Below, one piece after another: positions 11,519 to 63,849 of a stretch of 64,000 bases of DNA. The notes under the pieces were generated by a model. That model did not search any database and was not told the DNA's origin. It worked only from the letters and a program-made list of their open reading frames with translations. Position numbers and translations under genes: made by a program. This DNA comes from an uncultured Myxococcales bacterium (GTDB lineage: Bacteria; Myxococcota_A; Polyangia; Fen-1088): assembly GCA_964443975.1 (NCBI GenBank), contig CAYUFS010000015.1:11711-75710 (forward strand), in the 5' to 3' direction. Positions within the stretch are counted from its first letter, which is position 1, and each line of letters starts with the position of its first letter.

Positions 11519-11561
11519 GATGTTCAAAGCGACGACAACGAGAGCGAACGGGAGAACACCG

Positions 11562-40860: not shown

Positions 40861-40909
40861 TGAAGGGCGGCAGTAAATCCAGGGCCGAGATCAATGGCGC
40901 AGCAGAATC

Positions 40910-43568: not shown

Positions 43569-44308
43569 AAACCATCGTGTCTGTCAAGAATGCCACCAAG
43601 GACTACGCGCTCGGAAAGGTCACGGTGCAGGCGCTCCGTGGGGTCGACCTCGAGGTGGCCGAGGGCGAGTTTCTGTCGATCGCCGGGCCCTCGGGCAGCG
43701 GGAAGACGACGCTCCTCAACCTGATCGGCTGCGTGGACACTCCCACCTCGGGAACGGTCGAGGTCGCCGGCAAGGACACGCGCAAGCTGTCCGAGCGTGA
43801 GCTGACCGAGCTGCGGCTCAACACCATCGGCTTCATCTTCCAGAGCTTCAATCTGGTGTCCGTATTGAGCGTGTTCCAGAACGTCGAGCTGCCGCTGTTG
43901 CTGCAGCGCAAGCTCAGCACGCCAGAGCGGTCGGCGCGCGTGCGCGCCCTGCTCGAGCGCGTCGGGCTGGGCGAGCACGCCCGCCATCGGCCGAGCGAGC
44001 TGTCCGGCGGACAGCGCCAGCGGGTCGCCATCGCGCGCGCGCTGGTGACGCGGCCACAGCTGGTGCTCGCCGACGAGCCGACGGCGAACCTCGACTCCGT
44101 CACGGGCCAGAACATCCTGGATCTCATGAAGGAGCTGAACCACACCGAGCGGACCACGTTCATCTTCTCGACCCACGATGCGCAGGTGATGGCGCACGCC
44201 AGCTCCGTCGTTCGCCTCGCCGACGGGAAGTTCGTGGACCGCCTGAGCGCCGCGGACGCGGTCGCGGCCGGGGTGAACCGCCGGCTGCCCACGGCGGGGG
44301 TCTCGTGA
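43565..44308 (+). CDS. ABC transporter ATP-binding protein (LolD/MacB-type)
   Basis: Walker A GPSGSGKTT, signature LSGGQRQRVAIARA, Walker B LVLADEPT. Confidence 0.9.
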   Translation: MKTIVSVKNATKDYALGKVTVQALRGVDLEVAEGEFLSIAGPSGSGKTTLLNLIGCVDTPTSGTVEVAGKDTRKLSERELTELRLNTIGFIFQSFNLVSVLSVFQNVELPLLLQRKLSTPERSARVRALLERVGLGEHARHRPSELSGGQRQRVAIARALVTRPQLVLADEPTANLDSVTGQNILDLMKELNHTERTTFIFSTHDAQVMAHASSVVRLADGKFVDRLSAADAVAAGVNRRLPTAGVS

Positions 44309-46464: not shown

Positions 46465-46492
46465 GGGAAGAGGGATGAGGGATGAGGGATGA
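46456..46492. repeat. GA-rich heptamer repeat GGGATGA (3-4 units) placing TGA in all three frames
   Basis: Units GAGGGATGA / GGGAAGAGGGATGA / GGGATGA / GGGATGA begin in the permease stop codon. TGAs at 46462, 46476, 46483 and 46490 cover frames 1, 0, 1 and 2. Confidence 0.4.
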
Positions 46493-46539
46493 CGAGGGAC
46501 AGCGCGCGGACCAGGGACGCAAGGACGAGGAGCTGAGAC

Positions 46540-47856
46540 ATGCCAACGCTTGGAACGAACTTTCGCATCGCCTTTCGTAGCCTCATCCAGCACCGACGTC
46601 GGGCGCTGTTCCTGGGCGGCGCGATCGGCTCGGTGACCGCCCTGCTCGTGCTCTTGAACGGGCTCTCCACGGGCGTCCACGAAACGATGGAGCACACCGC
46701 CACCACGCTGTCGAGCGGCCACGTCAACGTCGGGGGCTTCTTCAAGGTCAGCGCCGGGCAGTCGGCGCCCGTGGTCACCGACTACGCCAAGGTGCTGGAG
46801 CTCGTGAAGCGTTCCGTCCCGGAGCTCGCCTTCACGGTTCAGCGTGGGCGCGGGTGGGCGAAGCTCGTGTCGGATTCGGGCTCGATGCAAGCGGGGATCG
46901 GTGGCATCGACATCAAGGACGAGCCGGCGTTCAAGAAGGTGCTCCACATCGTGAGCGGCAACATCGACGATCTGGCGCAGCCGGGGACCATCCTGCTGTT
47001 CGAGGACCAGCTGAAGAAGCTGGACGTGAAGATCGGCGACGCCATCACCGTGTCGGCCCAGACCACGCGCGGGGTCGCGAACACCATCGATTGCCGCGTC
47101 GTCGCCATCGCGCGCGACGTGGGCCTGATGAGCAAGTGGAACGTCTACGTCCCCATGGTGACGTTGCGGGCGCTCTATCAGCTGAGCCCCGGCACGACCG
47201 GGGCGATTCACCTGCACCTGCGCCCGAGCGAGCAGGCGAAGGCGCCCCAGATCGCCGGCAGATTGCGGGCCACCCTGGAGCAGGCCGGGTACCGCATGAT
47301 GGACCCCGATCCGCGTGCGTTCTGGATGAAGTTCGAGACGGTCAACCGCGAACAGTGGACCGGGCAAAAGCTGGACGTGACGACGTGGGAGGACGAGCTG
47401 TCGTTCCTGACCTGGACCCTGCAGCTCTTGCAGGTGCTGAAGACCTTGCTCCTCTTGATCCTGGTGGCCATCGTCATCACCGGAATCATGAACACGATGT
47501 GGATCGCCATCCGCGAGCGCACCCGGGAGATCGGAACGTTGCGGGCCATCGGCATGCAACGGAAGGGCGTGCTGTGGATGTTTCTGCTCGAGTCCTTGCT
47601 GCTCGGCGCGGGCAGCGCCGTCGGCGGCGCCATCGCCGGGGCCTCGATCGCGGCGGGGTTGAACCGCCTGCAGATCGCCGTGCCCCTGTCCATGCAGTTC
47701 TTCCTGATGTCCGACCACCTCAACTTGTCGGTTCACCTGGGTGAGGTCGTGATGGCGGTCGTCTTGTTGACGATCCTCACCGGGCTGGCGGCGCTCTACC
47801 CCTCGTTGCGGGCAGCGCGGCTCCGGCCCGTCGAGGCCATGTCCCACTTCGGTTGA
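46540..47856 (+). CDS. FtsX-family ABC permease (LolC/E-like)
   Basis: 438 aa. TM1, a ~250-aa periplasmic domain, then the C-terminal FtsX core (LRAIGMQRKG). Confidence 0.8.
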   Translation: MPTLGTNFRIAFRSLIQHRRRALFLGGAIGSVTALLVLLNGLSTGVHETMEHTATTLSSGHVNVGGFFKVSAGQSAPVVTDYAKVLELVKRSVPELAFTVQRGRGWAKLVSDSGSMQAGIGGIDIKDEPAFKKVLHIVSGNIDDLAQPGTILLFEDQLKKLDVKIGDAITVSAQTTRGVANTIDCRVVAIARDVGLMSKWNVYVPMVTLRALYQLSPGTTGAIHLHLRPSEQAKAPQIAGRLRATLEQAGYRMMDPDPRAFWMKFETVNREQWTGQKLDVTTWEDELSFLTWTLQLLQVLKTLLLLILVAIVITGIMNTMWIAIRERTREIGTLRAIGMQRKGVLWMFLLESLLLGAGSAVGGAIAGASIAAGLNRLQIAVPLSMQFFLMSDHLNLSVHLGEVVMAVVLLTILTGLAALYPSLRAARLRPVEAMSHFG

Positions 47857-47885
47857 TCGCGGAAACGCCCAGACGAGAGAAGCCA

Positions 47886-48713
47886 ATGACACACTTCCGT
47901 TCCCGCTCGAAGCCCCTCCCCCTGCCCGTGCTGCTCGCGATCACCGTCGCGATGCTCGCTCCCCTCGCGGGGTTTCTGGCCCCGCCCGCCCACGCCGCCG
48001 GCAAGACGAAGGCGGAGCTGGTGGAGCTCCTGAAGGCAGTGGACGTGAGGCAAAACAGCCAGGGCGACTGGCACTCGCACATCTACATGGAGCAGAAGGA
48101 GAAGGACAAGGTCGACGTCGTCTACGAGGGCGAGGTCTACCGGCGAAGCCAGGACCAGAAGTTCGTCATCGTGTTCACGAAACCGAAGGCGTCGCAGGGG
48201 CAAGGGTACCTGCGCATCGATCAGAACCTCTGGTTCTACGATCCGGCCGTCGGCAAGTGGGAGCGACGCACCGAGCGGGAGCGCATCGGCGGCACGAACT
48301 CGCGTCGCTCGGACTTCGACGAGTCGCGCCTGGCCGAGGAGTACGATCCGGACGACGACGGCGAGCAGAAGCTCGGCGCGTACACGGCGCAGGCCCTGAC
48401 CTTGAAGGGGAAGCCGGGCATCGATCTCGCCTTCCCGGTGGTGAAGCTGTGGGTGGATCGGGACACCAAGAACGTCCTCAAGCGGCAGGAGTTCGCCCTG
48501 TCGGGTCGGTTGTTGCGGACGTCGTACTACCCGCGGTGGAAGAAGGCCTACAGCGAGTCGAAGAAGGGTGACACCTGGTTCCCGGAGGAGATTCGCTTCT
48601 TCGACGAGGTCGAGAAGGCGAACTCGACGCTGATCCTCATCAAGGAGGTCGACTTCAAGCCGCTTCCGCAGAATCTGTTCACGAAGGCCTGGCTCGAGAG
48701 CAAGAGCCGGTGA
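47886..48713 (+). CDS. LolA-like outer-membrane lipoprotein-sorting family protein (putative)
   Basis: Signal peptide MTHFRSRSKPLPLPVLLAITVAMLAPLAGFLAPPAHA. An ~240-aa beta-rich domain. It is wedged between an FtsX permease and an OM barrel gene. The track start at 47853 is a TTG. Confidence 0.5.
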   Translation: MTHFRSRSKPLPLPVLLAITVAMLAPLAGFLAPPAHAAGKTKAELVELLKAVDVRQNSQGDWHSHIYMEQKEKDKVDVVYEGEVYRRSQDQKFVIVFTKPKASQGQGYLRIDQNLWFYDPAVGKWERRTERERIGGTNSRRSDFDESRLAEEYDPDDDGEQKLGAYTAQALTLKGKPGIDLAFPVVKLWVDRDTKNVLKRQEFALSGRLLRTSYYPRWKKAYSESKKGDTWFPEEIRFFDEVEKANSTLILIKEVDFKPLPQNLFTKAWLESKSR

Positions 48714-50374
48714 GCGCGCGCTCGAGGATCGTGCTCCTGGCGGTGGCCAGCGCAGGCGCCTCCGCTGTCGCGATTGGTTCCGCCCGAGGCGCCGAGCCGG
48801 CGCGGCCGAACGAGGACGAGATGTTCGGAGGCGCACCGTCGGCCCCGGCGGACGCCGGGACCGCGGCCCCCGGCGCCGCCGACGCGCGTGTGGGGTCCGC
48901 ACCCGCCGCCAGCTCACCACCGACCGCCGGCGCGACCTCGGGCGCCAGCCCTGGCTTCCCGACGCCCACCGCGCCACCATCCGCGTCCGACGAGCACGGG
49001 ACGTCGCGCGACGTCGACCTCCTCGGCGATCCCAACGCCGGACCACGCCTCAGTCAGGAGGTGGCGCCCGACGATCCGCTGAAGATCGGCGGCCAGATCT
49101 ACTTGCGCGCCTCCTACAACAATCCGGGGTCGCCCACCTTCGACTTCTCGAATCCGACGGATGTGAAGAGCCAGCACACGACGTTCTCGGCGCCGTCGCT
49201 GGTGGACGCGTTCTTCGACGCCCGACCGAACGATCGCGTGCGCGGCTTCGTCCTCGGTCGGCTGTTCTTCGATCCGACGCTCCCGACGACGACGACGGCG
49301 AGCACGGGGACCACCTCCGGCACGATGACCGGCACGTCGATGGCCGTGACCCCGACGGCGCCCGGCCTCTCCGGCGTCTCCAGCACGCGGGGCCCGGCGG
49401 CCGTGCTCGATCAGCTGTGGCTGCGGTTCGACATCGCGCACACGGTCTTCGTCACGGCCGGGCGGCAGCACGTGAAGTGGGGAACGGCGCGGTTCTGGAC
49501 GCCCACGGACTTCCTGCATCCCGAGCACCGGAATCCCGTGGCGGTGTTCGACGCCCGACCCGGCTACACGATGCTGAAGCTACACCTGCCGTGGGAGGAG
49601 CGCGGCTGGAACTTCTACGCCTTCGGCCTGGTCGAAGGCGTTCGACGCTGGGACCCCAGCACGAACACTTATCCTCTCGGAAACGACCGCGTCGCCACGC
49701 TGGGGCAGCTCGGTGGCGCAGCCCGGGCCGAGCTGGTGCTCGGGCCCGCCGAGCTCGGCCTCGACGCCGTCGTCTACAAGGATCAGAAGCCCCGCTACGG
49801 CGCGGATCTGTCCTTCGGCGTCGGCGACTTCGATCTCTACGTCGACGCGGGATTTCGCTATGGCAGCGAGATTCCCCGTGCCCAGGAAGACTTCAGCATC
49901 ACCTACGCGGTGGGTATCAAGCCACAGATCACCACCGGCGGCACCTATTCGCTGAAGTACAACGACAACGACGTGTTCACGCTGGCGGCGGAGTATTTCT
50001 ACAACGCGCTGGGATACCCCAGTCCCCGCGTCTACCCGGCGTTGTTCTACACGGGGACGTTCGAGTTCTTCTACACCGGACGTCACTACGCGGCCGTGTC
50101 CGCCATCGCGAACGCGCCCTGGTCCTGGAACTACTCGAACTTCAGCTTCACGACGATCGGAAACCTGTCGGATCAGTCGTTCATCAGCCGGATCGACTAT
50201 TCGTACACGTTGCTGACCCACATGACGTTCGAGGCGTTCGGCGCCGTGAACTACGGGCGGCGCGAGGGCGAGTTCAGGCTCGGCGTCGACAGCCTGACCT
50301 TGCCAAACGGCCAGAGCTTTTCGCTGTCGCCGCAGGCGTTCAGCCTCGGGATCGGACTGCGCGTCAAGATCTGA
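48710..50374 (+). CDS. Putative outer-membrane beta-barrel protein
   Basis: GTG start overlapping the upstream TGA. Signal MSARSRIVLLAVASAGASAVAIG. Alternating-aromatic strands. The C-terminus is GIGLRVKI. Confidence 0.55.
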   Translation: MSARSRIVLLAVASAGASAVAIGSARGAEPARPNEDEMFGGAPSAPADAGTAAPGAADARVGSAPAASSPPTAGATSGASPGFPTPTAPPSASDEHGTSRDVDLLGDPNAGPRLSQEVAPDDPLKIGGQIYLRASYNNPGSPTFDFSNPTDVKSQHTTFSAPSLVDAFFDARPNDRVRGFVLGRLFFDPTLPTTTTASTGTTSGTMTGTSMAVTPTAPGLSGVSSTRGPAAVLDQLWLRFDIAHTVFVTAGRQHVKWGTARFWTPTDFLHPEHRNPVAVFDARPGYTMLKLHLPWEERGWNFYAFGLVEGVRRWDPSTNTYPLGNDRVATLGQLGGAARAELVLGPAELGLDAVVYKDQKPRYGADLSFGVGDFDLYVDAGFRYGSEIPRAQEDFSITYAVGIKPQITTGGTYSLKYNDNDVFTLAAEYFYNALGYPSPRVYPALFYTGTFEFFYTGRHYAAVSAIANAPWSWNYSNFSFTTIGNLSDQSFISRIDYSYTLLTHMTFEAFGAVNYGRREGEFRLGVDSLTLPNGQSFSLSPQAFSLGIGLRVKI

Positions 50375-51639: not shown

Positions 51640-51787
51640 CCGCCGCCTCGGGGCGGGTGGGCTCGCCTTCGGCACGAGGACCGGCGGGCCGACGTTTTCT
51701 GCCTCACGGCGGTAAGGTTCTCCGAACACGGGAAACAAGGCTTGGCCACGGGGCCTCCCCAAGCTCGGAGGAACGCGGCGGAACGAC

Positions 51788-52351
51788 ATGAAGACATCCG
51801 TCAGAAACGCTGCGCGATCCCCCGGGACGGCGACCAAGGACCTCGATGAGGCGTTGGAGCACCTGTACGAGCGCTACTTCCCCCTCGTCGATCGTTGGGT
51901 TCGTCGCCTGGGTGGGCCTGCCGCCGACGTCGAGGATCTGACCCACGACGTGTTCGTGATCGCTCTGCGGCGCCGCGCCGAATTCCGGGGCGAGGCACGC
52001 CTGACCACCTGGCTCTTTCGGATCACGGACCGCGTGGTCGCCGGCCGTCGCCGCCGCTCGTTGATTCGCAGATGGCTCTTCGCGCGTCACGGTCACGAGC
52101 TCGCGGATCGCTCCGACCCCCACACGGCGCTCGACGAGCTCGAGCGGCGCGAGCAGAACGCTCGCCTGTACGCCGCGCTCGATCGGCTCCCCCACGCGGA
52201 TCGAACGGTCCTTATCCTGTACGAGCTCGAGGGGATGTCAGGACAGGACGTCGCCGATCTCGTGGGCATCGCCGTCAACGCCGTCTGGGTCCGGCTGTTC
52301 CGGGCGCGCGCGAAGCTGCTGGCGGCGCTGGGCGGGCCGGTGGGAACATGA
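51788..52351 (+). CDS. ECF (sigma-70 family, group 4) RNA polymerase sigma factor
   Basis: Region-2 block HDVFVIALRRRAEFRGEARLTTWLFRI. Region-4 HTH block ILYELEGMSGQDVADLVGIAVNAVWVRLFRARAKL. Confidence 0.8.
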   Translation: MKTSVRNAARSPGTATKDLDEALEHLYERYFPLVDRWVRRLGGPAADVEDLTHDVFVIALRRRAEFRGEARLTTWLFRITDRVVAGRRRRSLIRRWLFARHGHELADRSDPHTALDELERREQNARLYAALDRLPHADRTVLILYELEGMSGQDVADLVGIAVNAVWVRLFRARAKLLAALGGPVGT

Positions 52352-53391
52352 GCGCGTCGAACGACAAACCGAGCATCGCGGATCGCCTGGCCGACCTGCG
52401 CGCCGACGCCGATCCGACCGGCGTCGGACGGCTCGTGCGCTGCGCGGCCACCATCGATCAGGCCAGCGCGGGCACTCGGCAGCTCGTGAAGTGGCGAATT
52501 CGCAAGACGCTGAAGCGGCGCGGCTGGGGACCTGCGGTGTTGCGTCCCACCCTCGTGGTGGCCCTGGTGTTCGTCAGCGGAGGTTTTCTGGGGGCGACGA
52601 TCCACAGAATGGCCCTGCGCGTGGTCGTCGGGGAGCCGCACGGCGCGCATCGTCCCGTCCGCGAGCCAGCCGCCCGCCGCGCTGCGCGGGCGCCTGTAGC
52701 CACACCCGCGCCCTCTCTCCCCGCGACGCCCCCGCCGTCCGTGTGGCCCGCAGGCAATACCCCAGCGGAGAGGACAGCGCCGAGGGGCCTTCGAGCCTGG
52801 GCCGCCGCGCCGGGCGCCCTGGCCGCCGCGGCGGGCGCTCCTGCCGCCCCCCAAGCCACGTCGCCTGCGACCCCATCGTCGGGCGAGGCCACCCAGCAAG
52901 ACTTGTTGGTGCGCGCAATTCGGCAATTGCGAATCGAGGGAAGCCCCGGCGTCGCCCTGGCTTCGCTGGACGACTATCAGGCCCGCTTCTCCGCGAGCGC
53001 CCTCGAGCCCGAGGCGGAAGCCCTGCGCGTCGAGGCGCTGCTGGCGTTGGGGAGAAAGGAGCAAGCCCTCGCCGCGGTGGACGATCTGCTCGCGCGGCCG
53101 CGACCCGGGAACGACGGCCGCCGGGTGCTGCGCGGCGAGATTCAGATGTCGCTTGGCGCGTGGCGCGATGCCTTGACCGATTTCGAGGTGGCCTTGGCGG
53201 GGCCTGGTGGCCCGGAGTCCGGGAGATCAACCGCCGGTTTCGTCGAACGCGCGCTCTGGGGTCGCGCCGTGTCGCGCGGCCGACTCGGAGACGAATCGGG
53301 AGCGCGCGCCGCGCTCGAGGACTACTTGCGACGCTTTCCCCAGGGCAGGTTCGCGGCCGGGGCCGCTCGGGCGCTGGGACTGAGACCGTGA
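52348..53391 (+). CDS. Putative anti-sigma factor (cytoplasmic N-domain, one TM, TPR-like periplasmic domain)
   Basis: The ATG overlaps the sigma stop (ATGA). TM helix PTLVVALVFVSGGFLGATI. The C-terminus is Ala/Leu-rich and TPR-like. Confidence 0.55.
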   Translation: MSASNDKPSIADRLADLRADADPTGVGRLVRCAATIDQASAGTRQLVKWRIRKTLKRRGWGPAVLRPTLVVALVFVSGGFLGATIHRMALRVVVGEPHGAHRPVREPAARRAARAPVATPAPSLPATPPPSVWPAGNTPAERTAPRGLRAWAAAPGALAAAAGAPAAPQATSPATPSSGEATQQDLLVRAIRQLRIEGSPGVALASLDDYQARFSASALEPEAEALRVEALLALGRKEQALAAVDDLLARPRPGNDGRRVLRGEIQMSLGAWRDALTDFEVALAGPGGPESGRSTAGFVERALWGRAVSRGRLGDESGARAALEDYLRRFPQGRFAAGAARALGLRP

Positions 53392-54377
53392 GCAAACGAC
53401 GGCCCGCGCGCTCCGCGCGGCTCTTCGTCGGAGTGGCCGTGGCCGCTGCGCTGCGCCCAACCTACAGCCGGGCCCAGCCGCCCGTCACCCCGCCGACCAT
53501 GCTCTCGGTTCTGAGCGACTCGTCGTGCCCGTCGGCCGAATCGGTGCGGCAGGCGCTGGTTTCACTGCTGCCCGCGCTCCCCGTCGATCCGGTGACGGTC
53601 GAGCTGCGAAGCGGCCGCGGGGTGCTGAGCATCGATTTCAGGTGGGGCGACGGCGTGCCTCCCGAGACACGCGTCCTACCCTTGCCCCCGGATTGTCAGA
53701 CGCGGGCCGGGCAGGCCGCGTTGGTCGTCGCGACGTGGTTGGGCAGCCCGCGCGTCGAGCCGTTCGCACCGCCGGCCCTGGCGCCGGTATCGGCTCCCAC
53801 ATCGGCCCCCACCTTGGCGAGGGCGGCGACGCCGTCGTCCGAGCCACCCGCGGACGCAGCGGCCCGACGGCAAACGACGATCGGCGTGGGGGTCGTGAAT
53901 TCCGCCGGGCGAGGCTGGGCGTCGGGCGGCCGGGCGGACGTAACGCGCGCGCCGGCAGCGGCTGGCCTGGGGTGGGGCGCCAGTATCGTCGCCACGAGGC
54001 CCGGCGACGTGTCGCTCGCGGGCGGGAGCTCGCGCTGGATGGTCGTCTCGCTGGCGCCCGTCGTCAAGGGTCGATGGACGACACGATGGCTCGCCGCGGA
54101 GGTCGACGCCGGGCCGCTCGCCACCCTCGCGATCGGATGGGGCTCCGGTTACGACACGAACCACGCCGACGGCCGGCCGTCCTTTGGGCTGACCGGAGGA
54201 CTGCGGTTGCTGGCGCACGGCCGGCCCTTTCAGCCGTGGATCGACGCGCGGGGGGCGTTTTGGCCAGTGTCCCCCCGGCTTCGGGTCGACGCCCCAGGGG
54301 GGACGCCGTCCGCCGTCGCTCGCCTGCCGACCGCCGATCTTCAGCTCGCGATCGGCATGAGCGTGATCCTTCCGTGA
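53388..54377 (+). CDS. Secreted hypothetical protein, third gene of ECF operon
   Basis: GTG start overlapping the anti-sigma stop (GTGA). Signal VSKRRPARSARLFVGVAVAAALRP. Confidence 0.45.
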   Translation: MSKRRPARSARLFVGVAVAAALRPTYSRAQPPVTPPTMLSVLSDSSCPSAESVRQALVSLLPALPVDPVTVELRSGRGVLSIDFRWGDGVPPETRVLPLPPDCQTRAGQAALVVATWLGSPRVEPFAPPALAPVSAPTSAPTLARAATPSSEPPADAAARRQTTIGVGVVNSAGRGWASGGRADVTRAPAAAGLGWGASIVATRPGDVSLAGGSSRWMVVSLAPVVKGRWTTRWLAAEVDAGPLATLAIGWGSGYDTNHADGRPSFGLTGGLRLLAHGRPFQPWIDARGAFWPVSPRLRVDAPGGTPSAVARLPTADLQLAIGMSVILP

Positions 54378-54441
54378 GTAGTCCTTCTTTGGCAGTCGCG
54401 AGTTTCCGGTAAGGATCCTCGGCCTCGGGAGACAAGCAGGC

Positions 54442-55132: not shown

Positions 55133-56533
55133 TCAACCCTTGTTCGGGCGCGGGATCTGGTAGCGCTCCAGCTTGGCCACGAACGTTCGTCGCGGCATCC
55201 CCATCAGCTTGGCCGCGCGGCTTTGATTTCCGGCGCACGCGGCGAGGGCGTCGAGCATGCGCTGACGCTCGTCGCCGGGGATGGGCGTCGACTCGCGGAC
55301 GCCGCTGCTGTCGTTGCCCCGGGCGCGCAGCGTATGCTCCGCCGACACGCCCGCGGGGGCAGCCGGGGCCCGTCGCTCCTCGGGCAGGTGCTCGAGGCCG
55401 ATCGCGCTACCGGCGCACAGCAGCACAGCGCGCTCGATGACGTTCTTCAGCTCGCGGACGTTGCCGGGCCAGTCCCGGGACTCCAGCGCCTTCAACACCT
55501 CGGCCGACAGCACCGGGGCTGACCGGCCTAGCTCGCGGCAGATGTCGCGCAGGAACGTCTCCGCGAGCGGGCGGATCTCGGACCGCCGCTCGCGAAGCGG
55601 CGGGATTCGAATCGAGATGCCATTCAGGCGGAAGTAGAGGTCGGCTCGAAAGGCATGCCGTTGCACCTCCTTCTCCAGATCGCGATTGGTCGCCGCGATG
55701 AAGCGGACGTCGACCCGCCTGGGGCGCACGCTGCCGAGCCGTGTGACCTCGCGCGTCTCGATGACTCGTAGCAGCTTGACCTGGGTCGACGGCGACATCT
55801 CGCCGACCTCGTCCAGGAACAGCGTGCCCCCTTCGGCGGCTTCCAGCAGCCCCACCTTTGCAGCGCCGGCGCCCGTGAAGGCCCCCTTCTCGTGACCAAA
55901 GAGCTCGCTCTCGAGCAGCGACTCCGACAGGGCGGCGCAGTTGAGGCAGATGGACGGACCCGACCGCCGGGGCGATAGCTGGTGGATGGTCTTGGCCATC
56001 ACCTCCTTGCCCACGCCCGTCTCGCCCAGGATGAGGACGTTGATCGTCCCGGCGGCGGCACGTTCCGCCACGGCGTAAATCGCCTTCATCGAATTGTCGT
56101 GCTCCAGCGTCACCGCCGCCAGGTTGGCCTCCGTGTACGTGGGGCCATCCATCGCACCTTGAGCGGCTCGCTCGGTGGACTGCTGGGACCGGACATGAAC
56201 GATGAGGACCGACGACCCGATGGCGATGGTTTCCCCGGATTGAACGGGCACGCGCTCGCCCCGCGCAATGGGCCGGTCTCGAACGCGCGTCCCGTTGATG
56301 CTGCCGAGATCCTCGACGAACAAGGTATCGCCGATGGTCAACCGGGCGTGTGACCGCGAGGCCTGCAGGTCGTCAATCCGCACGTCGGCCGATTCGGCGC
56401 GCCCGATGGTCACGGTGCCCACCGTCGGTAGGTTGTAGGTCTCGTACGACCCGTTTCCAATCACCAGCAGACGGACCCCGGGCCGGTCACCCCATACGAC
56501 TGGATCGCCTGGAATCGTGGTCCGTTGTTTCAC
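55133..56533 (-). CDS. FHA-domain sigma-54-dependent transcriptional activator (FHA + AAA+ + Fis-type HTH)
   Basis: FHA: VRLLVIGNGSYETYNLPTVGTVTIGRAESADVRIDDLQASRSHARL. AAA+: GETGVGKEVMAKTIH and ESELFGHEKGAFTGA (GAFTGA intact). C-terminal HTH. The start is uncertain (a GTG at 56533 is proposed; no in-frame ATG lies near). Confidence 0.8.
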   Translation of the reverse strand: MKQRTTIPGDPVVWGDRPGVRLLVIGNGSYETYNLPTVGTVTIGRAESADVRIDDLQASRSHARLTIGDTLFVEDLGSINGTRVRDRPIARGERVPVQSGETIAIGSSVLIVHVRSQQSTERAAQGAMDGPTYTEANLAAVTLEHDNSMKAIYAVAERAAAGTINVLILGETGVGKEVMAKTIHQLSPRRSGPSICLNCAALSESLLESELFGHEKGAFTGAGAAKVGLLEAAEGGTLFLDEVGEMSPSTQVKLLRVIETREVTRLGSVRPRRVDVRFIAATNRDLEKEVQRHAFRADLYFRLNGISIRIPPLRERRSEIRPLAETFLRDICRELGRSAPVLSAEVLKALESRDWPGNVRELKNVIERAVLLCAGSAIGLEHLPEERRAPAAPAGVSAEHTLRARGNDSSGVRESTPIPGDERQRMLDALAACAGNQSRAAKLMGMPRRTFVAKLERYQIPRPNKG

Positions 56534-56800
56534 GCATGCCTTCGCAAGAGGAGATCGCGTAACCGCGATGATGCTAGGCCGCCAGGCGTCGTTCCCGCAA
56601 GCACCATTGCGCAACGTGCGCGCGGCTGCACAACCTGTGCAGCGCAACGCGGGCGGCAGCCAGGCCGCCGAGGTTCGCGGTCGCAGGCCATACGAGGCAG
56701 GCCCGATGGCTGCGGGCCTTTTCAGCCACGCGGCCGGCCCGTCCCTTGGAACGTGTCTTGCTGCTAGGCGGCCGGTCTGCACAAAAGAGGAGAATCGCGC

Positions 56801-57934
56801 ATGACGGCATCCCACGCTCAATCGCATCTGGAACCGGAGAACGACTTCGACGAGGCCAGCGAATACCTGGACGAGCTTCGCAACGACCACCTGGGGCTGG
56901 TCGGGGGGTCTCCTGCCATGGTCGCGCTTCGCGACCTAATCCGGCGGGTCGCCCGGTCGGAGCGACCGATCCTCATCTCGGGGCCAGAGGGCGCCGGGAA
57001 GTCGCTGGTCGCGCTCGCGATCCAGCGCCTGGGCGCCGTGGGCGGAGCCTCCGGCCGACTGGTGTTCGCGAACTGCGCCGAGCTCGCCGAGAAGGAGCTG
57101 GAGGCGATGCTCTTTGGGGCCCCGGGGCGGCCCGCGGCGCTCTCGCCAGGGGACACCGTGGCGCTCGACGATGTGGACCGTCTTCCGCCGTCGATTCAGG
57201 CGAAGTTGGTGCGGGCGTTTCAGGTCGGGGCGTCGGCGGGTGGACAGGCCGCGGCCCGTGGGGGCGCGCCGCAGCCGCGAGCCTTGCCTCGTATTCTGGC
57301 GTTGACGAACCATTCTCTGTCCCGGGCCGTCCGCGAGAACACCTTCCGCGCGGACCTGCTGTACGAGCTGGCGGTCCTCACGGTGCCGGTGCCTGGTCTG
57401 GACGAGCACAGGAGCGACATTCCCGCCCTGGTCAATCACGTCCTCAGGCTCGGGCAGAGCTCGATCCGCTTCTCGTCCGATGCACTCGACTTCCTGGGTG
57501 CGCGCGGCTGGCCGGGCGGCGTGCGCGAGCTGCGCAGCGTGGTCGAGCGCGCGGTTTCGCTCTGCCGGGAGCCTAGTGTCAGCGCGGAGCTCCTTCGTCG
57601 GCTGGTGGCGCCGGAGCCCCTCGAGACCAATATCAATCACTCCCTTCAGGCGCTGGCGGAGCGGCTGCTCAGGCTGCCGGTCCGCAACAAGCTGGCGGCG
57701 GTGGAGGAAGCGCTGCTGGCGATGGCGATGGAGACGTGCTTTGGAAACAAGAGCGCGGCAGCTCGGATGCTGGGCTTACATCGCAAGGCCGTCGAGCGGA
57801 AGCTGGAAAAGTACGACGTCCGGTTCGCGCGGGCGCCCATGCGGGCGGGCGAAACCGCCATTGGAGAGATAGGGGCAACCGCCGCGCCCAGCGGCACGTT
57901 TCGGTCCTCGGCGACAGGTCACTTTCCAGGCTGA
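56801..57934 (+). CDS. Sigma-54 activator-like AAA+ regulator lacking receiver domain and with degenerate GAFTGA loop, C-terminal Fis-type HTH
   Basis: Walker A GPEGAGKS, Walker B/arginine-finger-like blocks, and the HTH GNKSAAARMLGLHRKAVERKL. The GAFTGA position reads LFGAPGRPAALS. Confidence 0.7.
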   Translation: MTASHAQSHLEPENDFDEASEYLDELRNDHLGLVGGSPAMVALRDLIRRVARSERPILISGPEGAGKSLVALAIQRLGAVGGASGRLVFANCAELAEKELEAMLFGAPGRPAALSPGDTVALDDVDRLPPSIQAKLVRAFQVGASAGGQAAARGGAPQPRALPRILALTNHSLSRAVRENTFRADLLYELAVLTVPVPGLDEHRSDIPALVNHVLRLGQSSIRFSSDALDFLGARGWPGGVRELRSVVERAVSLCREPSVSAELLRRLVAPEPLETNINHSLQALAERLLRLPVRNKLAAVEEALLAMAMETCFGNKSAAARMLGLHRKAVERKLEKYDVRFARAPMRAGETAIGEIGATAAPSGTFRSSATGHFPG

Positions 57935-58016
57935 CCGAAGCCCATGCGGTCCGCCGTTCCGGCGGTGGGCCCTGCGATGTGCTAGCGTTTGCGGGTTTCC
58001 GGAAGGAGGCCTCGCG

Positions 58017-58169
58017 ATGAGATGGGAACAGCCTGAGCTCGTGGAAATCGGAATGAACGCGGAAATCGGCGGCTATCAGTCGGACTTCGACGGCACCGAC
58101 GCCCCGGGACCGCGACGCCCCACCGGGGAATCCTCGGACGACAAAACCGGAACGCGCTCCGGTTCGTGA
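58017..58169 (+). CDS. pqqA: Candidate PQQ precursor peptide PqqA (50 aa, extended C-terminus)
   Basis: Not in the ORF track (below its length cut-off). A GGAGG RBS lies 7 nt upstream. MRWEQPELVEIGMNAEIGGYQSDFDG... has W3, P6 and the E-x-x-x-Y pair (E16/Y20) with PqqA-like spacing. It ends 79 nt before pqqB. Confidence 0.6.
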   Translation: MRWEQPELVEIGMNAEIGGYQSDFDGTDAPGPRRPTGESSDDKTGTRSGS

Positions 58170-58248
58170 TATCGAAAGCCACCCATCGGAACCCAGGGTC
58201 GCACGGGCGCCCCGTCGGTCACTGACGGGACGAAAAGCCGAGGTTGCG

Positions 58249-59175
58249 TTGAGGGTTCGCGTGCTCGGCTCCGCCGCTGGAGGGGGGGCTCCGCAGTGGA
58301 ACTGTGGGTGCGCCAATTGCCAGGGACTTCGTAGCGGCGCGATCCGGGCGACCGCGCGCCGCCAGGAGTCCGTCGCGGTGAGCCCGTCGGGCGAGTCGTG
58401 GTTGGTGCTGAACGCGTCGCCCGAGATTCGGGCGCAGGTCGAGAGTTTCTCGGGGCTGTGGCCCAAGCGCCCGCGCCACTCCCCGATTGCCGGGATCGTG
58501 CTGACGAACGGCGACCTGGATCATGTGCTCGGATTGCTCTCGCTTCGCGAGTCCCATCCCCTCACGGTGTTTGCGACTGAGAGTGTGCGTCGGGGATTCA
58601 CCGAGGGGAACGTGCTTTATCGAACGCTGCAACGCTTCGAGGGGCAGGTGACCTGGCGGGCCCTCCACCTGGGACAGGAGATCGAGGCGTTCGAGGAGCA
58701 GGGCGCACGCGTGACCCTGGTCCCGTTCGCGGTCCCCGGCAAGCGGCCCATCCATCTCGAGGGGCCTGGGGCGCCTGCGCCGAGCGACGAGGACAATATT
58801 GCCCTGGTCGTGACGGCCCGCAGGGGGCAGGACCGGCGGGCGCTGGGGTACGTGCCCGCGGCGGCCGCATGGACGTCCGAAATGGAGGAGCGGCTCTCCC
58901 CGCTCGACGCCGTGTTCTTCGACGGGACGTTCTGGTCCAGCGACGAGCTGGTCGCCGCCGGTCTGGGGACGAAGCGAGCGGAGGACATGGCGCACCTGCC
59001 GGTTGGGGGAGCGGGGGGCGGACTGTCGCACCTCGAGAAATTGCGGGCGCGCCGGCGCATCTTGATCCACATCAACAACACCAACCCGATCCTTCGCGAG
59101 GACTCGTCCGAGCGTGCGCAGGTCGCAGCGGCAGGGGTGGAGATCGCGCACGACGACATGGAGATCCTGCTTTGA
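58249..59175 (+). CDS. pqqB: Coenzyme PQQ synthesis protein B (metallo-beta-lactamase fold)
   Basis: MRVRVLGSAAGGGAPQWNCGCANC matches the PqqB N-terminus. The start codon is TTG with a GAGGT RBS. Confidence 0.9.
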   Translation: MRVRVLGSAAGGGAPQWNCGCANCQGLRSGAIRATARRQESVAVSPSGESWLVLNASPEIRAQVESFSGLWPKRPRHSPIAGIVLTNGDLDHVLGLLSLRESHPLTVFATESVRRGFTEGNVLYRTLQRFEGQVTWRALHLGQEIEAFEEQGARVTLVPFAVPGKRPIHLEGPGAPAPSDEDNIALVVTARRGQDRRALGYVPAAAAWTSEMEERLSPLDAVFFDGTFWSSDELVAAGLGTKRAEDMAHLPVGGAGGGLSHLEKLRARRRILIHINNTNPILREDSSERAQVAAAGVEIAHDDMEILL

Positions 59176-59930
59176 GTGAGCGACCAGCGACCGGCACGAG
59201 CGCGTACTCCTACGGAGCCGACATCGCCGCGCCCTCGCTGTTGGCGCCCGATGCCTTCGTCGAGCGCCTGCGCAGCGAGGGGGCGTCCCGCTACCACGAT
59301 CAGCATCCGTTCCACCTGGCGATGCACGAGGGCCGGCTGTCGCGCGCCGATCTACAGCGCTGGGTGCTGAATCGTTACTACTATCAAACGCGGATCCCCA
59401 TCAAGGACGCGCTGATCCTCTCGAAGAGCGAGGACCCCGCGTTTCGGCGCGCCTGGATTCGAAGGATTCACGATCACGACGGCGTGGCGGAAGGCGAGGG
59501 CGGCCTCGCCGAGTGGCTTCGGTTGGCCGTGGCGGTCGGGCTGGACCCCGATGACGTGGAGAGCTGTCGCCTGGTGCATCCGGGCGTTCGCTTCGCTTGC
59601 GACACGTACGTCACGCTGGTCCGCGACAGCCGCCTGGTGGTCGCGGTCGCGTCGTCCCTGACGGAGTTCTTCGCGCCCGACCTGATGGCGCGCCGGATCG
59701 AGGCATGGGAGCGGCACTATCCGTTCGTCGACGCGGCGGGGCTGGCGTACTTCCGGGCCCGCGTGCCGCGGGCGCGCCGCGACTCGGAGGAGGCGGTGGC
59801 GTTCGTGGTGGCCGGGGCGCACACGCGCGAGGTGCAGGACGCGTGCGTGGCCGCGCTGGTGCGCAAGACCCAGATCCTGTGGCACCTGCTCGATTGTGTC
59901 GCCGCCGGGGCCGGCGGCGGCGGGCCGTGA
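59172..59930 (+). CDS. pqqC: Pyrroloquinoline-quinone synthase PqqC
   Basis: HPFHLAMHEGRLSRADLQRWVLNRYYYQTRIPIKDALILSKSEDP is the PqqC signature. A probable TTG start overlaps the pqqB stop. The track ORF 58869..59930 is over-extended. Confidence 0.85.
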   Translation: MSERPATGTSAYSYGADIAAPSLLAPDAFVERLRSEGASRYHDQHPFHLAMHEGRLSRADLQRWVLNRYYYQTRIPIKDALILSKSEDPAFRRAWIRRIHDHDGVAEGEGGLAEWLRLAVAVGLDPDDVESCRLVHPGVRFACDTYVTLVRDSRLVVAVASSLTEFFAPDLMARRIEAWERHYPFVDAAGLAYFRARVPRARRDSEEAVAFVVAGAHTREVQDACVAALVRKTQILWHLLDCVAAGAGGGGP

Positions 59931-61387
59931 CCGGGATCCCGGGCGCGGGGCGTCCGCGCCTCGCCGCCGGGGTTCGGCTGCGCCTCGATCACCTGTCGGG
60001 AAAGCACCTCTTGCTCCGCCCCGAGCGGGGGTTCGAGCTGAAGGGGGCAGCCCTCGAGATCGTGCGATCGTTCGGGGGGACGCCCACCGTCGACGGCATC
60101 ATCGACCACCTGGCTGCGTCGCATGCCGACGTCGCCCGCGCCCAGATCGCCGCCGACGTCCTCCGGTTGCTGGAGGAATTGCGGACGCGAGGGTTGATCG
60201 AGCTCGACGAGCCTGGCTGGAACCGCGGCGGCGACACGGGGTGGAGCGAGCCCACGCCCATCGACCGGCGGCCCCATTCCGCGACGAATGAGCCGCGACC
60301 CTACACCCTGGTCGCGGAGCTGACCTATCGCTGCCCGCTGCGCTGCGCGTATTGCTCCAACCCCATTCGCCTCGACACGCTGGGCCCCGAGCTGGACACG
60401 GCGACCTGGGCGCGCGTGTTCGAGGAGGCCGAGGCCCTCGGCGTCATGCAGGTCACGCTGACCGGCGGCGAGCCGCTCGTGCGCGCCGACCTCGAGGCGA
60501 TCGTCGCGGCGGCACGCGCACGCGATCTCTACACGACGCTCATCACCAGCGGCGTCCCGCTCGATCGCGAGCGGCTCGCCGGTCTGCGCGCGCGCGGGCT
60601 CGATGGCCTCCAGCTGTCGATTCAGGACACGGACGGCGAGGCCGCCGCGCGCATCGCGGGAATAGACGCCATGGCCCAGAAGGCGGCCGTGGCGGGCTGG
60701 GCGCGCGCGCTCGGATTGCCGCTGACGTTGAACGTGGTCTTGCACCGCGCGAACCTGCCCCGCCTCGCGTCCTTCATCACCCTCGCCGAAGCTTGGGGAG
60801 CCGAGCGCCTGGAGCTGGCGCACGTGCAGTACCTCGGCTGGGCGCTGGCGAACCGGGCGGCGCTGCTGCCGACGGCCACCATGATCGCCGAGGCACGCGC
60901 CGAGGTGACGCGCGCGCGTGAACGCCTGGGGCGGCGGATGGAGATCCTCGCGGTGCTGCCGGACTACTTCGCCGACCAGCCGCGCGGCTGCATGGAGGGT
61001 TGGGGGCGCCGCTACGTGGTCGTGGCGCCCGACGGCCGCGCGCTGCCGTGCCACGCCGCGCACACGCTACCGGGGCTCAGCTTCGACTCCGTCACCACGC
61101 GCGCGCTCGCCGACATCTGGACCAACTCGGATGCCTTCAGGCGGTTTCGTGGCGAGGCCTGGATGCCAGAGCCGTGCCGAAGCTGCGAACGGCGCACGCT
61201 CGATTTCGGCGGTTGCCGCTGCCAGGCGTACCACCTGACGGGCGACGCAACCGCGACGGATCCCGCGTGCGCCCTCGCCCCGCGCCACGATCTCGTGGTG
61301 GCCGCGCGCGACGACGCCGAGGCCCGCGCCGCGTCTGACACGGGCGCGCGCACGCTTCAACTTCGCCGTCCTCCTGCCTCCGGCTGA
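59927..61387 (+). CDS. pqqE: PqqD-PqqE fusion: peptide chaperone domain fused to radical-SAM/SPASM enzyme
   Basis: GTG start overlapping the pqqC stop (GTGA). The PqqD-like block is PRLAAGVRLRLDHLSGKHLLLRPERGFELKGAALEIVRSFGGTPTVDGII. The radical-SAM region has CPLRCAYC (Cx3Cx2C) and C-terminal SPASM cysteines. There is no stop between the two domains. Confidence 0.85.
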   Translation: MTGIPGAGRPRLAAGVRLRLDHLSGKHLLLRPERGFELKGAALEIVRSFGGTPTVDGIIDHLAASHADVARAQIAADVLRLLEELRTRGLIELDEPGWNRGGDTGWSEPTPIDRRPHSATNEPRPYTLVAELTYRCPLRCAYCSNPIRLDTLGPELDTATWARVFEEAEALGVMQVTLTGGEPLVRADLEAIVAAARARDLYTTLITSGVPLDRERLAGLRARGLDGLQLSIQDTDGEAAARIAGIDAMAQKAAVAGWARALGLPLTLNVVLHRANLPRLASFITLAEAWGAERLELAHVQYLGWALANRAALLPTATMIAEARAEVTRARERLGRRMEILAVLPDYFADQPRGCMEGWGRRYVVVAPDGRALPCHAAHTLPGLSFDSVTTRALADIWTNSDAFRRFRGEAWMPEPCRSCERRTLDFGGCRCQAYHLTGDATATDPACALAPRHDLVVAARDDAEARAASDTGARTLQLRRPPASG

Positions 61388-61418: not shown

Positions 61419-62252
61419 TCAGCGCAGGGCGTGGGTCATCAGCGGCAGCTTTCCGGCCGCCGGACCGCACTTCGAGATGGCCGCCAGATCATGCGCGACG
61501 AACATCATATTCAGATACTCCTTCTCGGGGAATGGTCTGGCGATGTTGAACCCACGCAGGCGGTCAATCTTGATCGATTGATTGGCCCGGTTGAAGTCGT
61601 CGATCGCGAGAAGCTCGCCGGCGAACCGGTGCGAGATGGGCAGATCGACATCGTCGAAGTAGATGAACGTCCGTCGCAACAGCTTGCGGCCGGGGAGGGT
61701 GAGCACCTGGAGCGCCTGCATCGTCGACGAGTAGAGATCCACGTCGACGGAGATGAAGCCAACAGGCGGTGCGGAGCCGGCGCGCACGAAGGCCGGCACC
61801 GTGTCGGCGACATTCCCCAGGATCAGCTCGGTACGCGCCGTCAGCCGTTCGCGCAGGCTGACCTCGTCCATCGGATAGTCCCCTGGCTGCCAGGCGTCGG
61901 GGTGATCGCGGTGGTCGCCGATGAAGGCTGGCAATCCGGCGGGTCCGTTGTCAAACCCAAACACCCGGATGGTCACCCCCGTCTCGCGCTCGACCGCCGC
62001 GCTCTCCTCTTGGAGCGATATGAGACCGTTGCCTCCGGCCACCCCGAACTCGATGACCGAGATCTCCTGGATTCCCTCCGCACGCGCCTGCTCCGCCGCG
62101 AGCAAGACCCCAGCCAGGTAGTTCGGTCGCGGGGAAAGATCCCATAACGAGCGGGTCGCCACCGACACCGGCAACGCGCCATACAACGCCTTCACCAGCA
62201 ATCGAAACGGCGGCTCCTTGAGGATCTTCTTGAAATACCGGCCAGCCTGCAT
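61419..62252 (-). CDS. Class I SAM-dependent methyltransferase, TylF/MycF-like (putative)
   Basis: VIEFGVAGGNG and FGFDNGPAGLP resemble the VECGVxRGGS and FDSFxGLP blocks of TylF-family O-methyltransferases. 277 aa. Confidence 0.45.
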   Translation of the reverse strand: MQAGRYFKKILKEPPFRLLVKALYGALPVSVATRSLWDLSPRPNYLAGVLLAAEQARAEGIQEISVIEFGVAGGNGLISLQEESAAVERETGVTIRVFGFDNGPAGLPAFIGDHRDHPDAWQPGDYPMDEVSLRERLTARTELILGNVADTVPAFVRAGSAPPVGFISVDVDLYSSTMQALQVLTLPGRKLLRRTFIYFDDVDLPISHRFAGELLAIDDFNRANQSIKIDRLRGFNIARPFPEKEYLNMMFVAHDLAAISKCGPAAGKLPLMTHALR

Positions 62253-62406: not shown

Positions 62407-63849
62407 TCAGGCCGGCTCGCCTTCGGCGTCGAGGACCACGGGCGCCGGCAAGCCCAGCGCCCGCAGCTCCGGCTCGATGGTGGCGCGGTCGCCGACCACG
62501 ACGATGCCGAGCCGGTCGGGGTCGAGATAGCGGGCGGCCGCTTGCTTCATGTCGTCGGCGGTGGTGGCGGCGACCGCGGCGATGAACCGCGCCGGCTCGT
62601 CTGCGGGCAGCCCATAGAGCCCCATGTCCGCGAACGTGCCCGCCACGCCCGACGCCGTCGACAGCGCCTCGGCCGTGCGATCGAGCAGGGTGGCGCGGGC
62701 CTTCGTCATCTCGGCGTCGCCCACGTCATCGGTGCGCATGCGCCCGATCTCCTCGAGCGCGTCCGTTATGGCGGCGCCGGTCACCTGAGTGAACACGGAG
62801 GTGCGCACGGTGAACGACGACGGACGCCGGAACGCGCTGAACCCCGAGCTCGCGCCGTAGGTGTAGCCCTTCTTCTCGCGCAGCGTGAAGTTCAGGCGAC
62901 TGGTGAACGTGCCGCCGAGGACGACGTTCAGCATCTGCACGGCAGGGCGATCGGGGGCGAGGCGCGACGAGCCCGGGCCCACCATCCGAAGGACGCTCTG
63001 GGGCGCCCCCGGTCGGTCGACCATCACGAGGCGTGGCAGCGACGGGAGGCGGGGCGTCGGCGCGGTGACGGGCAGCGGCGCGGGGCGCCATCTGGAGAAC
63101 GCGCGTTCGAGCTCCTCCGCCAGCGTCGCCGGCTCGAAGTCCCCCGCCAGCGTGACGACGGCGTTGTTCGGGCGCCAGAACCTGTCGTGGAACGCGCGCA
63201 CGTCATCCAGGGCCAGCGCGCCGATGGTGGCTTCCAGGCCGTCCACCGGACGCCCATAAGGATGGGTCGGCCCGTAGAGCGCCAGGGCGGTGATCAAGTC
63301 CGCGACCGACTCGGGCTGATCGCGCCGCTGCTGCAACGCCGTCAGGCGGTCGTGGTGCACCCGCTCCCAGTCCGCGACCTCGAAGCGCGGTCGCAGCACG
63401 ATGTCGGTCGCGATCTCCAGCGCCTGCGAAAACTCCTCGCTCGGGACCTGGAGGTTCAACTGCGCGCCGTCGCGTCCCGCGCCGACCCAGAGGTCGGCGC
63501 CGAGCCGCTCCAGCGACTCGGCGATCTCCAGCGCCGTGCGAGGGCCCGCGCCCTCGTCCATCATCTCGGCGGTCAGCGACGCGAGGCCCGTCTGCCCGGG
63601 AGGATCTTGATCCGCGCCGGTGCGGATGACCAGGTTCAACGCCACGATCGGCGCTGCCCGTCGCCGAACCGCCACCACCTCCATGCCGTTCGATAGCACG
63701 AACGAGATGGGTTGGGGCATGACGAGCGCGGGGAACGGCCCCACGACCGGGCGGTGCGCCATGTACGGCGGCGAGGTCACGGGGACAGGCTGGGCCGCCC
63801 GCGCTTCACCGCCGCCGTCCGCCGCGCCGTCGCGCACCGGCCCGCTCAC
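62407..63849 (-). CDS. M16-family (pitrilysin-like) peptidase homologue, probably the non-catalytic subunit
   Basis: M16 fold blocks are present. The zinc-site position reads GLASLTAEMMDEG rather than HxxEH. The GTG start overlaps the stop of the upstream gene (GTGA). Confidence 0.7.
   Translation of the reverse strand: MSGPVRDGAADGGGEARAAQPVPVTSPPYMAHRPVVGPFPALVMPQPISFVLSNGMEVVAVRRRAAPIVALNLVIRTGADQDPPGQTGLASLTAEMMDEGAGPRTALEIAESLERLGADLWVGAGRDGAQLNLQVPSEEFSQALEIATDIVLRPRFEVADWERVHHDRLTALQQRRDQPESVADLITALALYGPTHPYGRPVDGLEATIGALALDDVRAFHDRFWRPNNAVVTLAGDFEPATLAEELERAFSRWRPAPLPVTAPTPRLPSLPRLVMVDRPGAPQSVLRMVGPGSSRLAPDRPAVQMLNVVLGGTFTSRLNFTLREKKGYTYGASSGFSAFRRPSSFTVRTSVFTQVTGAAITDALEEIGRMRTDDVGDAEMTKARATLLDRTAEALSTASGVAGTFADMGLYGLPADEPARFIAAVAATTADDMKQAAARYLDPDRLGIVVVGDRATIEPELRALGLPAPVVLDAEGEPA

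Follow-up and report, generated by a model that had tools for sequence, protein, structure and literature searches.

A GAFTGA-less, sensor-less activator homologue preceded by a conserved, predicted sigma-54 promoter beside an FHA-domain enhancer-binding protein in uncultured myxobacteria

The window analyzed here is a 64,000-nucleotide stretch from an uncultured Myxococcales bacterium (contig CAYUFS010000015.1, positions 11,711 to 75,710; GC content, ~68%), in which two regulator genes stand head-to-head just upstream of a pqq operon for synthesis of pyrroloquinoline quinone (PQQ). The minus-strand gene (55133 to 56533, 466 amino acids [aa]) encodes a canonical sigma-54 enhancer-binding protein (EBP) of FHA, AAA+, and helix-turn-helix (HTH) architecture, hereafter FHA-EBP, which we identified by its Pfam domains, intact motifs, and a start conserved in orthologues. 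The plus-strand gene (56801 to 57934, 377 aa), here called Q, encodes an AAA+-HTH homologue of such proteins that has neither a sensor domain nor GAFTGA, as judged from Pfam searches, alignments, an AlphaFold2 model, and the ratio of nonsynonymous to synonymous substitution (Ka/Ks). Open reading frame (ORF) listing and Pfam confirmed both frames and the domains that a first-pass annotation, made from the letters alone, had given the two proteins.

FHA-EBP matches the Pfam models FHA (PF00498, 52.7 bits; residues 160 to 225 of the longest ORF), Sigma54_activat (PF00158, 224 bits), AAA_lid_14, and HTH_8. Its Walker A (GETGVGKE), GAFTGA, Walker B (LFLDEV), arginine finger (FRADLYFRL), and sensor II (PGNVREL) motifs are all intact, which bears out the earlier description of a minus-strand activator with an undamaged GAFTGA, and the phosphothreonine-binding residues GR, SxxH, and NG are all present in the FHA domain (TIGRAESADVRIDDLQASRSHARL...GSINGTRV). 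By its domains and motifs, FHA-EBP is predicted to be a bona fide sigma-54 activator: the AAA+ motif set is complete, and a conserved -24/-12 element with upstream palindromes lies within its reach (see below). The gene does not begin at 56890, as first annotated; that position is merely the start of the longest ORF and overlaps Q. Nine orthologues open with [V/L]K(Q/T)RTT, and the same point in the window is a GTG codon at 56531 to 56533, with a GAAGG Shine-Dalgarno sequence 5′ of it. Given this conserved start, the divergent intergenic region runs from 56534 to 56800 (267 bp).

The product of Q, whose gene has a GAGGAG Shine-Dalgarno sequence, matches Sigma54_activat (PF00158) at only 78 bits, together with a lid domain (PF25601) and HTH_8 (PF02954), and has no N-terminal sensor domain. 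We checked its motifs in HMMER alignments to NtrX, ZraR, and NifA and in a MAFFT alignment with PspF and the neighboring FHA-EBP. In alignment to PspF, ZraR, and NtrX, the L1 loop that bears GAFTGA is deleted by about 11 to 13 residues ('LFGAPGRPAALSPGDTVALDDV'); the first-pass annotation had correctly described a plus-strand protein without GAFTGA or a receiver. Two further changes, which it had not mentioned, affect the catalytic site. Walker B reads DD (LDDV) in place of DE, the lost Glu being the counterpart of E108 in PspF, and the arginine-finger position (R168 in PspF) is Glu, within FRADLLYEL. The Walker A Lys, sensor I Thr/Asn, and sensor II Arg are kept.

The AlphaFold2 model of Q (predicted local distance difference test score [pLDDT], 79) has the AAA+ fold of EBPs with a disordered L2 region, and its best Foldseek matches in the PDB are GAFTGA-less NtrX structures (5m7p closest), followed by ZraR and NtrC1, at a probability of 1.0. 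We ruled out that Q is an NtrX orthologue, given a score of 147 bits to NF051870 against an equivalog cutoff of 600 and the lack of a Response_reg domain. Q is thus homologous to EBPs in fold and in domain order (AAA+, lid, Fis-type HTH) and is missing three features of an activator, namely, the L1/GAFTGA loop, the Glu of Walker B that serves catalysis, and the arginine finger that acts in trans. Loss of GAFTGA with retention of nucleotide-binding residues and a DNA-binding domain is the pattern of sigma-54-independent EBP homologues. Without the L1 loop and arginine finger, Q would be unable to remodel the sigma-54 holoenzyme, and we consider it very probable that Q cannot contact or activate sigma-54 in the usual way. 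This had been proposed from the missing GAFTGA, and the proposal gains from the wider family, in which the L1 loop is gone from every member and the arginine finger from 55 of 56. Lacking both elements, Q most likely acts without sigma-54 as a DNA-binding regulator, or as an inhibitor.

A search of 5.8 billion proteins placed Q in a family of about 55 protein clusters at 49 to 93% identity, all without a sensor domain, 350 to 425 aa long, and with intact reading frames. All sources are soil metagenomes or metagenome-assembled genomes labelled Polyangia or Myxococcales (uncultured); among GTDB species representatives, the family is found in just five. Beyond it, there is a sharp drop in score (242 to 213 bits), with identities of 44% or less. 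The L1 loop is absent from all 56 aligned sequences (Q and 55 relatives). The arginine-finger position is Glu in 52, Ala in 3, and Arg in 1, and Walker B takes several forms (about 14 sequences with DE and about 25 with DD, others with ND or ED). The family retains Walker A GK and sensor II Arg and shows almost no variation in the HTH; blocks that are invariant across the family are the N-terminal EYLDELRNDHLGLVG, RENTFRADLLYEL, FRADLLYEL, DIPALVNH, and, in the HTH, GNKSAAARLLGLHRKAVERKLEKY.

With several catalytic motifs degenerate and Walker B varying among members, Q might be read as the decaying, nonfunctional remnant of an EBP. We reject this reading because of the conservation of the family, which comprises some 55 clusters with unbroken frames, long invariant blocks at the N terminus, around the former arginine finger, and in the HTH, Ka/Ks values of 0.15 to 0.3 for Q, and a conserved promoter; a relic is highly improbable. 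The Ka/Ks values point instead to purifying selection on the Q family, and Q differs from its orthologue in the related locus L001 (~80% identity) at the same rate as its neighbors PqqB, FHA-EBP, and M16.

The nearest outgroup of the family consists of canonical EBPs (37 to 44% identity) that have GAFTGA, DE, and Arg, and the motif losses in the Q family are therefore derived. We discarded the idea that Q is a recent duplicate of its FHA-EBP partner, to which it is 31 to 34% identical, as opposed to 37 to 44% for another clade of canonical EBPs. The closest canonical relatives of Q appear to be myxobacterial EBPs, which suggests that GAFTGA was lost in this family independently of NtrX. One early-branching member, P0054 (402 aa, 49% identity), has no GAFTGA and yet keeps the arginine finger (FRADLYYRL), suggesting that the L1 loop was lost earlier than the finger.

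The first-pass annotation had not remarked on a feature of the DNA ahead of Q itself, where a conserved, putative sigma-54 promoter and enhancer stand in front of a gene whose product lacks GAFTGA. We compared 15 distinct Q-family loci, the window included (among the others are L001, L003, L004, L006, L007, L008, L086, L087, L089, and L165 to L167). The candidate promoter, a plus-strand -24/-12 element at 56747 to 56762 (TGGAACGTGTCTTGCT; GG at 56748 to 56749 and GC at 56760 to 56761; predicted transcription start near 56773), has the form TGGAAC-N5-CTTGCT and begins 54 nucleotides (nt) 5′ of the Q ATG. It is the sole match in the window to the consensus TGGCAC-N5-TTGCW with at most one mismatch. 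The core TGG-N9-TGC (consensus, TGGAAC-N5-CTTGCT) is kept in 15/15 loci at 29 to 74 nt 5′ of the Q start codon, with flanks that cannot be aligned. A position weight matrix built from 12 sites found no other match of at least 12 bits in the window, and no match of comparable score occurs within 10 kb on either side in any locus.

Upstream of this element lies a putative enhancer, or upstream activating sequence, of tandem palindromes (56608 to 56650), comprising TGCGCAACGTGCGCG at 56608 to 56622, the perfect palindrome TGCACAACCTGTGCA at 56627 to 56641, and a CGCAAC half-site; the palindromes sit about 113 to 132 bp upstream of the -24/-12 element. In most loci, two to three copies of the consensus TGCACA-N3-TGTGCA occur at 17- to 20-bp spacing, about 80 to 160 bp 5′ of the -24 element, while L087 has a single clear copy 234 bp upstream. 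The perfect palindrome is found once in the 64-kb window, and across the 20-kb loci the motif is essentially confined to the divergent intergenic region, with one chance-level match elsewhere in L001. No enhancer-like palindrome was found near pqqA, near the downstream M16 peptidase operon, or in the rest of the window. Together, the palindromes and the sigma-54 element are arranged as is typical of promoters that depend on an enhancer, and from their position and conservation we make the promoter and enhancer assignment with high confidence.

Other elements of the intergenic DNA may serve FHA-EBP. Sigma-70-type promoter-like sequences on the minus strand (56571 to 56601) comprise a candidate -35 element (TTGCGG/CTTGCG, 56595 to 56601) and a candidate -10 element (TAGCAT, 56571 to 56576), and the blocks CGCAAG and GATGCTAGG/CGTAGG/GGTAGG are conserved at matching positions in 12 loci whose flanks diverge. 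A simple consensus scan did not call this promoter. A generic sigma-70 and terminator scan of 56400 to 58300, ill-suited to a 68% GC genome, returned no promoters and one terminator-like site, within the FHA-EBP coding sequence. A GGCCCG-N7-CGGGCC hairpin with TTTT after it (56699 to 56727) stands between the enhancer and the sigma-54 promoter. Of the relatives, only the closest, L001 and L089, share this hairpin, which may represent a bend, an IHF-like region, or else an orphan terminator.

Downstream of Q lies a complete pqqABCDE gene set. It comprises pqqA (58017 to 58169, plus strand, 50 aa), recognizable by its E-x3-Y motif (AEIGGYQSDF) and conserved in L001, L086, and L089; pqqB (58249 to 59175, plus strand; TIGR02108 equivalog, 362 bits); pqqC (59172 to 59930, plus strand; Pfam PQQC/TENA); and a fused pqqD-pqqE (59927 to 61387, plus strand), a 486-aa ORF with PqqD, Radical_SAM, and SPASM domains. 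The fusion also occurs in L089 (13182 to 14636), while L001 has separate overlapping genes, as probably does L086, where the match is split into two overlapping segments. Typical PqqA peptides are about 22 to 39 aa long. The PqqA here carries a C-terminal extension of ~25 residues (…GPRxPT…) that is conserved in L001, L086, and L089, and no NCBIfam model matched the window PqqA.

This arrangement had suggested that the regulator pair places PQQ synthesis under phospho-signaling control. In that case, either binding of Q to the promoter of pqqA or a Q-pqqABCDE transcript made from the sigma-54 promoter would link the regulators to the operon, and a phosphothreonine signal would set PQQ levels. 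Q does end 82 nt before the pqqA ATG on the same strand (stop at 57934, ATG at 58017), as first noted, and this adjacency recurs in four distinct loci at 68 to 80% identity. The hairpin after Q in the window (57939 to 57983) has no U-tract, so read-through is possible. Against such a role, the -24/-12 element that the first-pass annotation had proposed to look for is missing from the spacer: there is no GG-N10-GC in 57935 to 58016, the best match to the sigma-54 consensus has five mismatches, nothing comparable is conserved in relatives, and no enhancer-like palindrome lies upstream of pqqA either. pqqA appears to have a promoter of its own. The extended -10-like element TGTGCTAGCGT (57978 to 57988, plus strand), a candidate sigma-70-family promoter, belongs to a conserved TGTGCTA(G/C)(C/T)GT found in the window, L001, and L089 (relatives, TGTGCTAC(T/C)GT) about 30 to 35 nt before the ATG; L086 has TGTGGTAGGGT further upstream of pqqA. 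An Rfam scan of the window gave no matches, so there is no known riboswitch or leader ahead of pqqA.

The spacer argues in the same direction. The GC-rich hairpin 3′ of the Q stop (57939 to 57983, plus strand) is a possible terminator or attenuator, with a folding energy of -24.8 kcal/mol; since its z-score against shuffles (-1.5) is not significant, a terminator reading draws solely on positional conservation. At the same position, relatives have long GC stems of 13 to 16 bp followed by U-runs, inside a spacer of 230 to 300 nt that parts Q from pqqA. This spacer (L001 11090 to 11380 and its equivalents in L086 and L089), shrunk to 82 nt in the window, also holds tandem repeats rich in G ([GGGAAGT]n in L001) and a long hairpin, GCGCGCGC…GCGCGCGC. 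From these observations, Q and pqq seem to be transcribed separately, with room for some read-through in this organism.

The comparison of gene neighborhoods weighs further against a PQQ-specific role. FHA-EBP is divergent from Q in 14/15 loci, the exception being L165, the most divergent member. pqqA-E follow Q in only 4 of the 14 loci on which the downstream counts are based (the window, L001, L086, and L089), which form a subclade with at least 68% identity, and the pair, promoter, and enhancer exist elsewhere without pqq. A convergent pair of M16 peptidase genes lies downstream in 11/14 loci, a count limited to the fetched flank. It follows Q directly in L004, L006, L007, L008, L087, L165, and L167 (with one small gene between in L167) and stands just beyond pqq in L001, L086, and L089; in the window, the first of the pair is at 62407 to 63849 on the minus strand (Pfam Peptidase_M16, M16_C). 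The M16 pair thus appears to be the ancestral downstream neighbor of Q. Because it follows Q directly elsewhere and pqq is present in 4/14 loci only, pqq is best seen as having been inserted between Q and the peptidase genes in this lineage alone. A dedicated PQQ-control role for the two regulators is weakly supported, and we regard it as unlikely that they are dedicated PQQ controllers. The adjacency to pqq looks like a recent accident of one lineage, and FHA-EBP and Q look like a conserved two-step module of uncultured myxobacteria.

The first gene of the M16 operon is itself preceded by a strongly conserved promoter-like block, GTTTCG-N~15-GACAATGCTAAA (L001 ~17950 to 18100, with equivalents in L004, L006, L007, L008, and L086). 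We considered this block as a Q site and rejected it, as it is sigma-70-like and unrelated to the enhancer.

We lean toward a two-tier module, with moderate confidence, in which FHA-EBP turns on Q from the sigma-54 promoter and the Q protein goes on to work independently of sigma-54. FHA-EBP would be made from its own sigma-70-type promoter and presumably gated by a phosphothreonine ligand from a Ser/Thr kinase encoded elsewhere; no Ser/Thr kinase (Pkinase) gene was seen in the part of the window's ORFs that was scanned or in Pfam lists for the neighborhoods of five relatives (6 to 10 kb on either side). It would bind the tandem TGCACA-N3-TGTGCA palindromes of the divergent intergenic region and, by ATP hydrolysis and its GAFTGA loop, open the sigma-54 promoter at 56747 to 56762, transcribing Q; FHA-EBP is probably the activator of this promoter. 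Since Q has no sensor domain, it would be controlled mainly via its synthesis, its amount largely setting its activity. Q retains nucleotide-binding residues and a highly conserved Fis-type HTH; its L1 loop and arginine finger are gone, and most family members also lack the catalytic Glu. Q may regulate sigma-70-type promoters as a sigma-54-independent DNA-binding protein, in the manner of TyrR, NtrX, VpsR, and Rhodobacter NtrC. Its targets would not generally be pqq, an operon that in this lineage would have been inserted downstream with its own promoter and possibly some extra read-through from the sigma-54 promoter.

Several observations weigh against this scheme. By chance alone, 1.45 matches to the sigma-54 consensus with at most one mismatch are expected in 64 kb; because a single match is at chance level, the promoter call rests on position and conservation, and the related loci share ancestry, though their flanking sequence has diverged. 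L165 keeps the sigma-54 promoter though no FHA-EBP adjoins it, and Q or another EBP may bind the palindromes instead of FHA-EBP. No shared motif that could be a Q site was found upstream of pqqA or the M16 operon, and neither a Q site nor a target gene was found. No rpoN gene was seen in the window. In the L165 locus (50% identity), TGGAAT-N5-CTTGCG precedes the called start by 29 nt, and the perfect palindrome TGCTCACGTTGAGCA occurs about 144 bp upstream (2757 to 3280); the activator there is presumably encoded elsewhere.

The close association of the two genes could also mean that Q is a sigma-54-induced anti-activator, either as a dead subunit in the FHA-EBP ring or as a competitor for shared palindromes, which would shut its own promoter and produce negative feedback or a pulse. 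The pairing of Q with FHA-EBP in 14/15 loci fits this proposal, as does the fact that the only local sigma-54 target is Q's own gene. Loss of the trans-acting arginine finger and the L1 loop is the expected look of a ring poison, and two to three similar palindromes could serve two HTH proteins. Hetero-oligomers of EBPs reportedly form in myxobacteria. For HrpR and HrpS, mixed EBP oligomers are reported (PMC3105312). However, Q is only about 31 to 34% identical to FHA-EBP and has nearer relatives in another EBP clade (43%), which gives no reason to expect the two to co-assemble; their recognition helices are not alike (PRRTFVAKL versus HRKAVERKL); and L165 has Q without an adjacent FHA-EBP. 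We therefore think an anti-activator rather unlikely. If it were true, a dominant-negative Q would turn a phosphothreonine signal into a self-limiting pulse of sigma-54 transcription. The two-tier module, in which Q goes on to act at promoters of its own, is the reading that we prefer.

Several other features of the window lie near the module. Upstream of FHA-EBP, a cluster conserved in several loci encodes an FtsX permease, a MacB_PCD/FtsX permease, a LolA-like lipoprotein carrier, and a 560- to 600-aa protein without Pfam matches. Pfam places this FtsX/LolA-like ATP-binding cassette (ABC) cluster at 43801 to 50374 in the window, 1 to 5446 in L001, 1386 to 8153 in L003, and 6 to 3974 in L166, and the regulators may act on it. 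An extracytoplasmic function (ECF)-type sigma factor gene (Sigma70_r2/r4) at 51716 to 52351 is followed by a stretch of 73% GC (51895 to 54400) in which long ORFs overlap in several frames and the one domain match, to TPR, is weak, possibly encoding an anti-sigma factor. The ECF sigma and high-GC block was not called between the ABC cluster and FHA-EBP in L001, L003, or L166. Between pqqE and the M16 pair, the window has a Methyltransf_24-like gene (61419 to 62252, minus strand), and L001 has an OsmC gene there. Farther away, a single 908-aa ORF (38164 to 40890, minus strand) joins a TonB C-terminal domain (residues 108 to 182) to a TonB-dependent-receptor Plug (residues 233 to 340), an unusual fusion, and three paralogues with the DUF1585/1587/1588/1592/1595 (PSD/PSCyt) set occur in the one window (1778 to 3862, 11508 to 13511, and 30074 to 32089).

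If the two-tier model is true, a degenerate paralogue would pass sigma-54 and Ser/Thr-kinase signaling on to sigma-70 promoters or return it as feedback. The locus also advises caution in annotation, since databases label such proteins "sigma 54-interacting transcriptional regulator," a role that they are predicted to be unable to fill, and adjacency to an operon, here pqq, is no evidence of regulating that operon.

Q shares its plain AAA+-plus-HTH composition, without an N-terminal regulatory domain, with PspF and HrpR-HrpS. Unlike Q, those proteins keep GAFTGA, DE, and the arginine finger and activate sigma-54, and they are controlled by the partner proteins PspA and HrpV. In Myxococcus, EBP-to-EBP sigma-54 cascades and FHA-domain EBPs have reportedly been described. 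The cascades of Myxococcus xanthus resemble the arrangement proposed here in that an EBP activates the sigma-54 promoter of an EBP-family gene, with FHA as an input module, but the downstream proteins are said to be competent sigma-54 activators, which Q is predicted not to be.

GAFTGA-less relatives of EBPs arose several times, as in TyrR, NtrX, HupR, VpsR, and some NtrC proteins, and the class is already known. To our knowledge, every characterized GAFTGA-less relative keeps a sensor or receiver domain. NtrX (Brucella abortus, PDB 5m7n/5m7p) is the best match of Q in sequence (123 bits), in fold, and among NCBIfam models (147 bits), and both combine an AAA+ domain of the EBP type, its L1 shortened and without GAFTGA, with a Fis-type HTH. 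They differ in that NtrX has a receiver domain, DE in Walker B, and an intact arginine finger (FREDLFHRL); Q has no receiver and has Glu at the finger position. TyrR, DhaR, HupR, and VpsR are GAFTGA-less EBP homologues that depend on sigma-70 (PMC3162934), as are Rhodobacter NtrC and Caulobacter NtrC and NtrX (bioRxiv 10.1101/2023.06.06.543975), and VpsR acts at sigma-70 promoters and needs no ATP hydrolysis for open complex formation (PMC6158489). Q resembles this TyrR/DhaR/HupR/NtrC/VpsR class, which acts at sigma-70 promoters without a need for ATP hydrolysis, in the loss or damage of the GAFTGA loop. It differs in that an N-terminal sensor or receiver gates activity in the class, whereas Q has none and its gene is apparently under a sigma-54 promoter. 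Judged from sequence, the Q family thus appears to be another independent GAFTGA-less lineage, set apart from these systems by the lack of both a sensor and the arginine finger and by a conserved, predicted sigma-54 promoter beside a canonical FHA-EBP.

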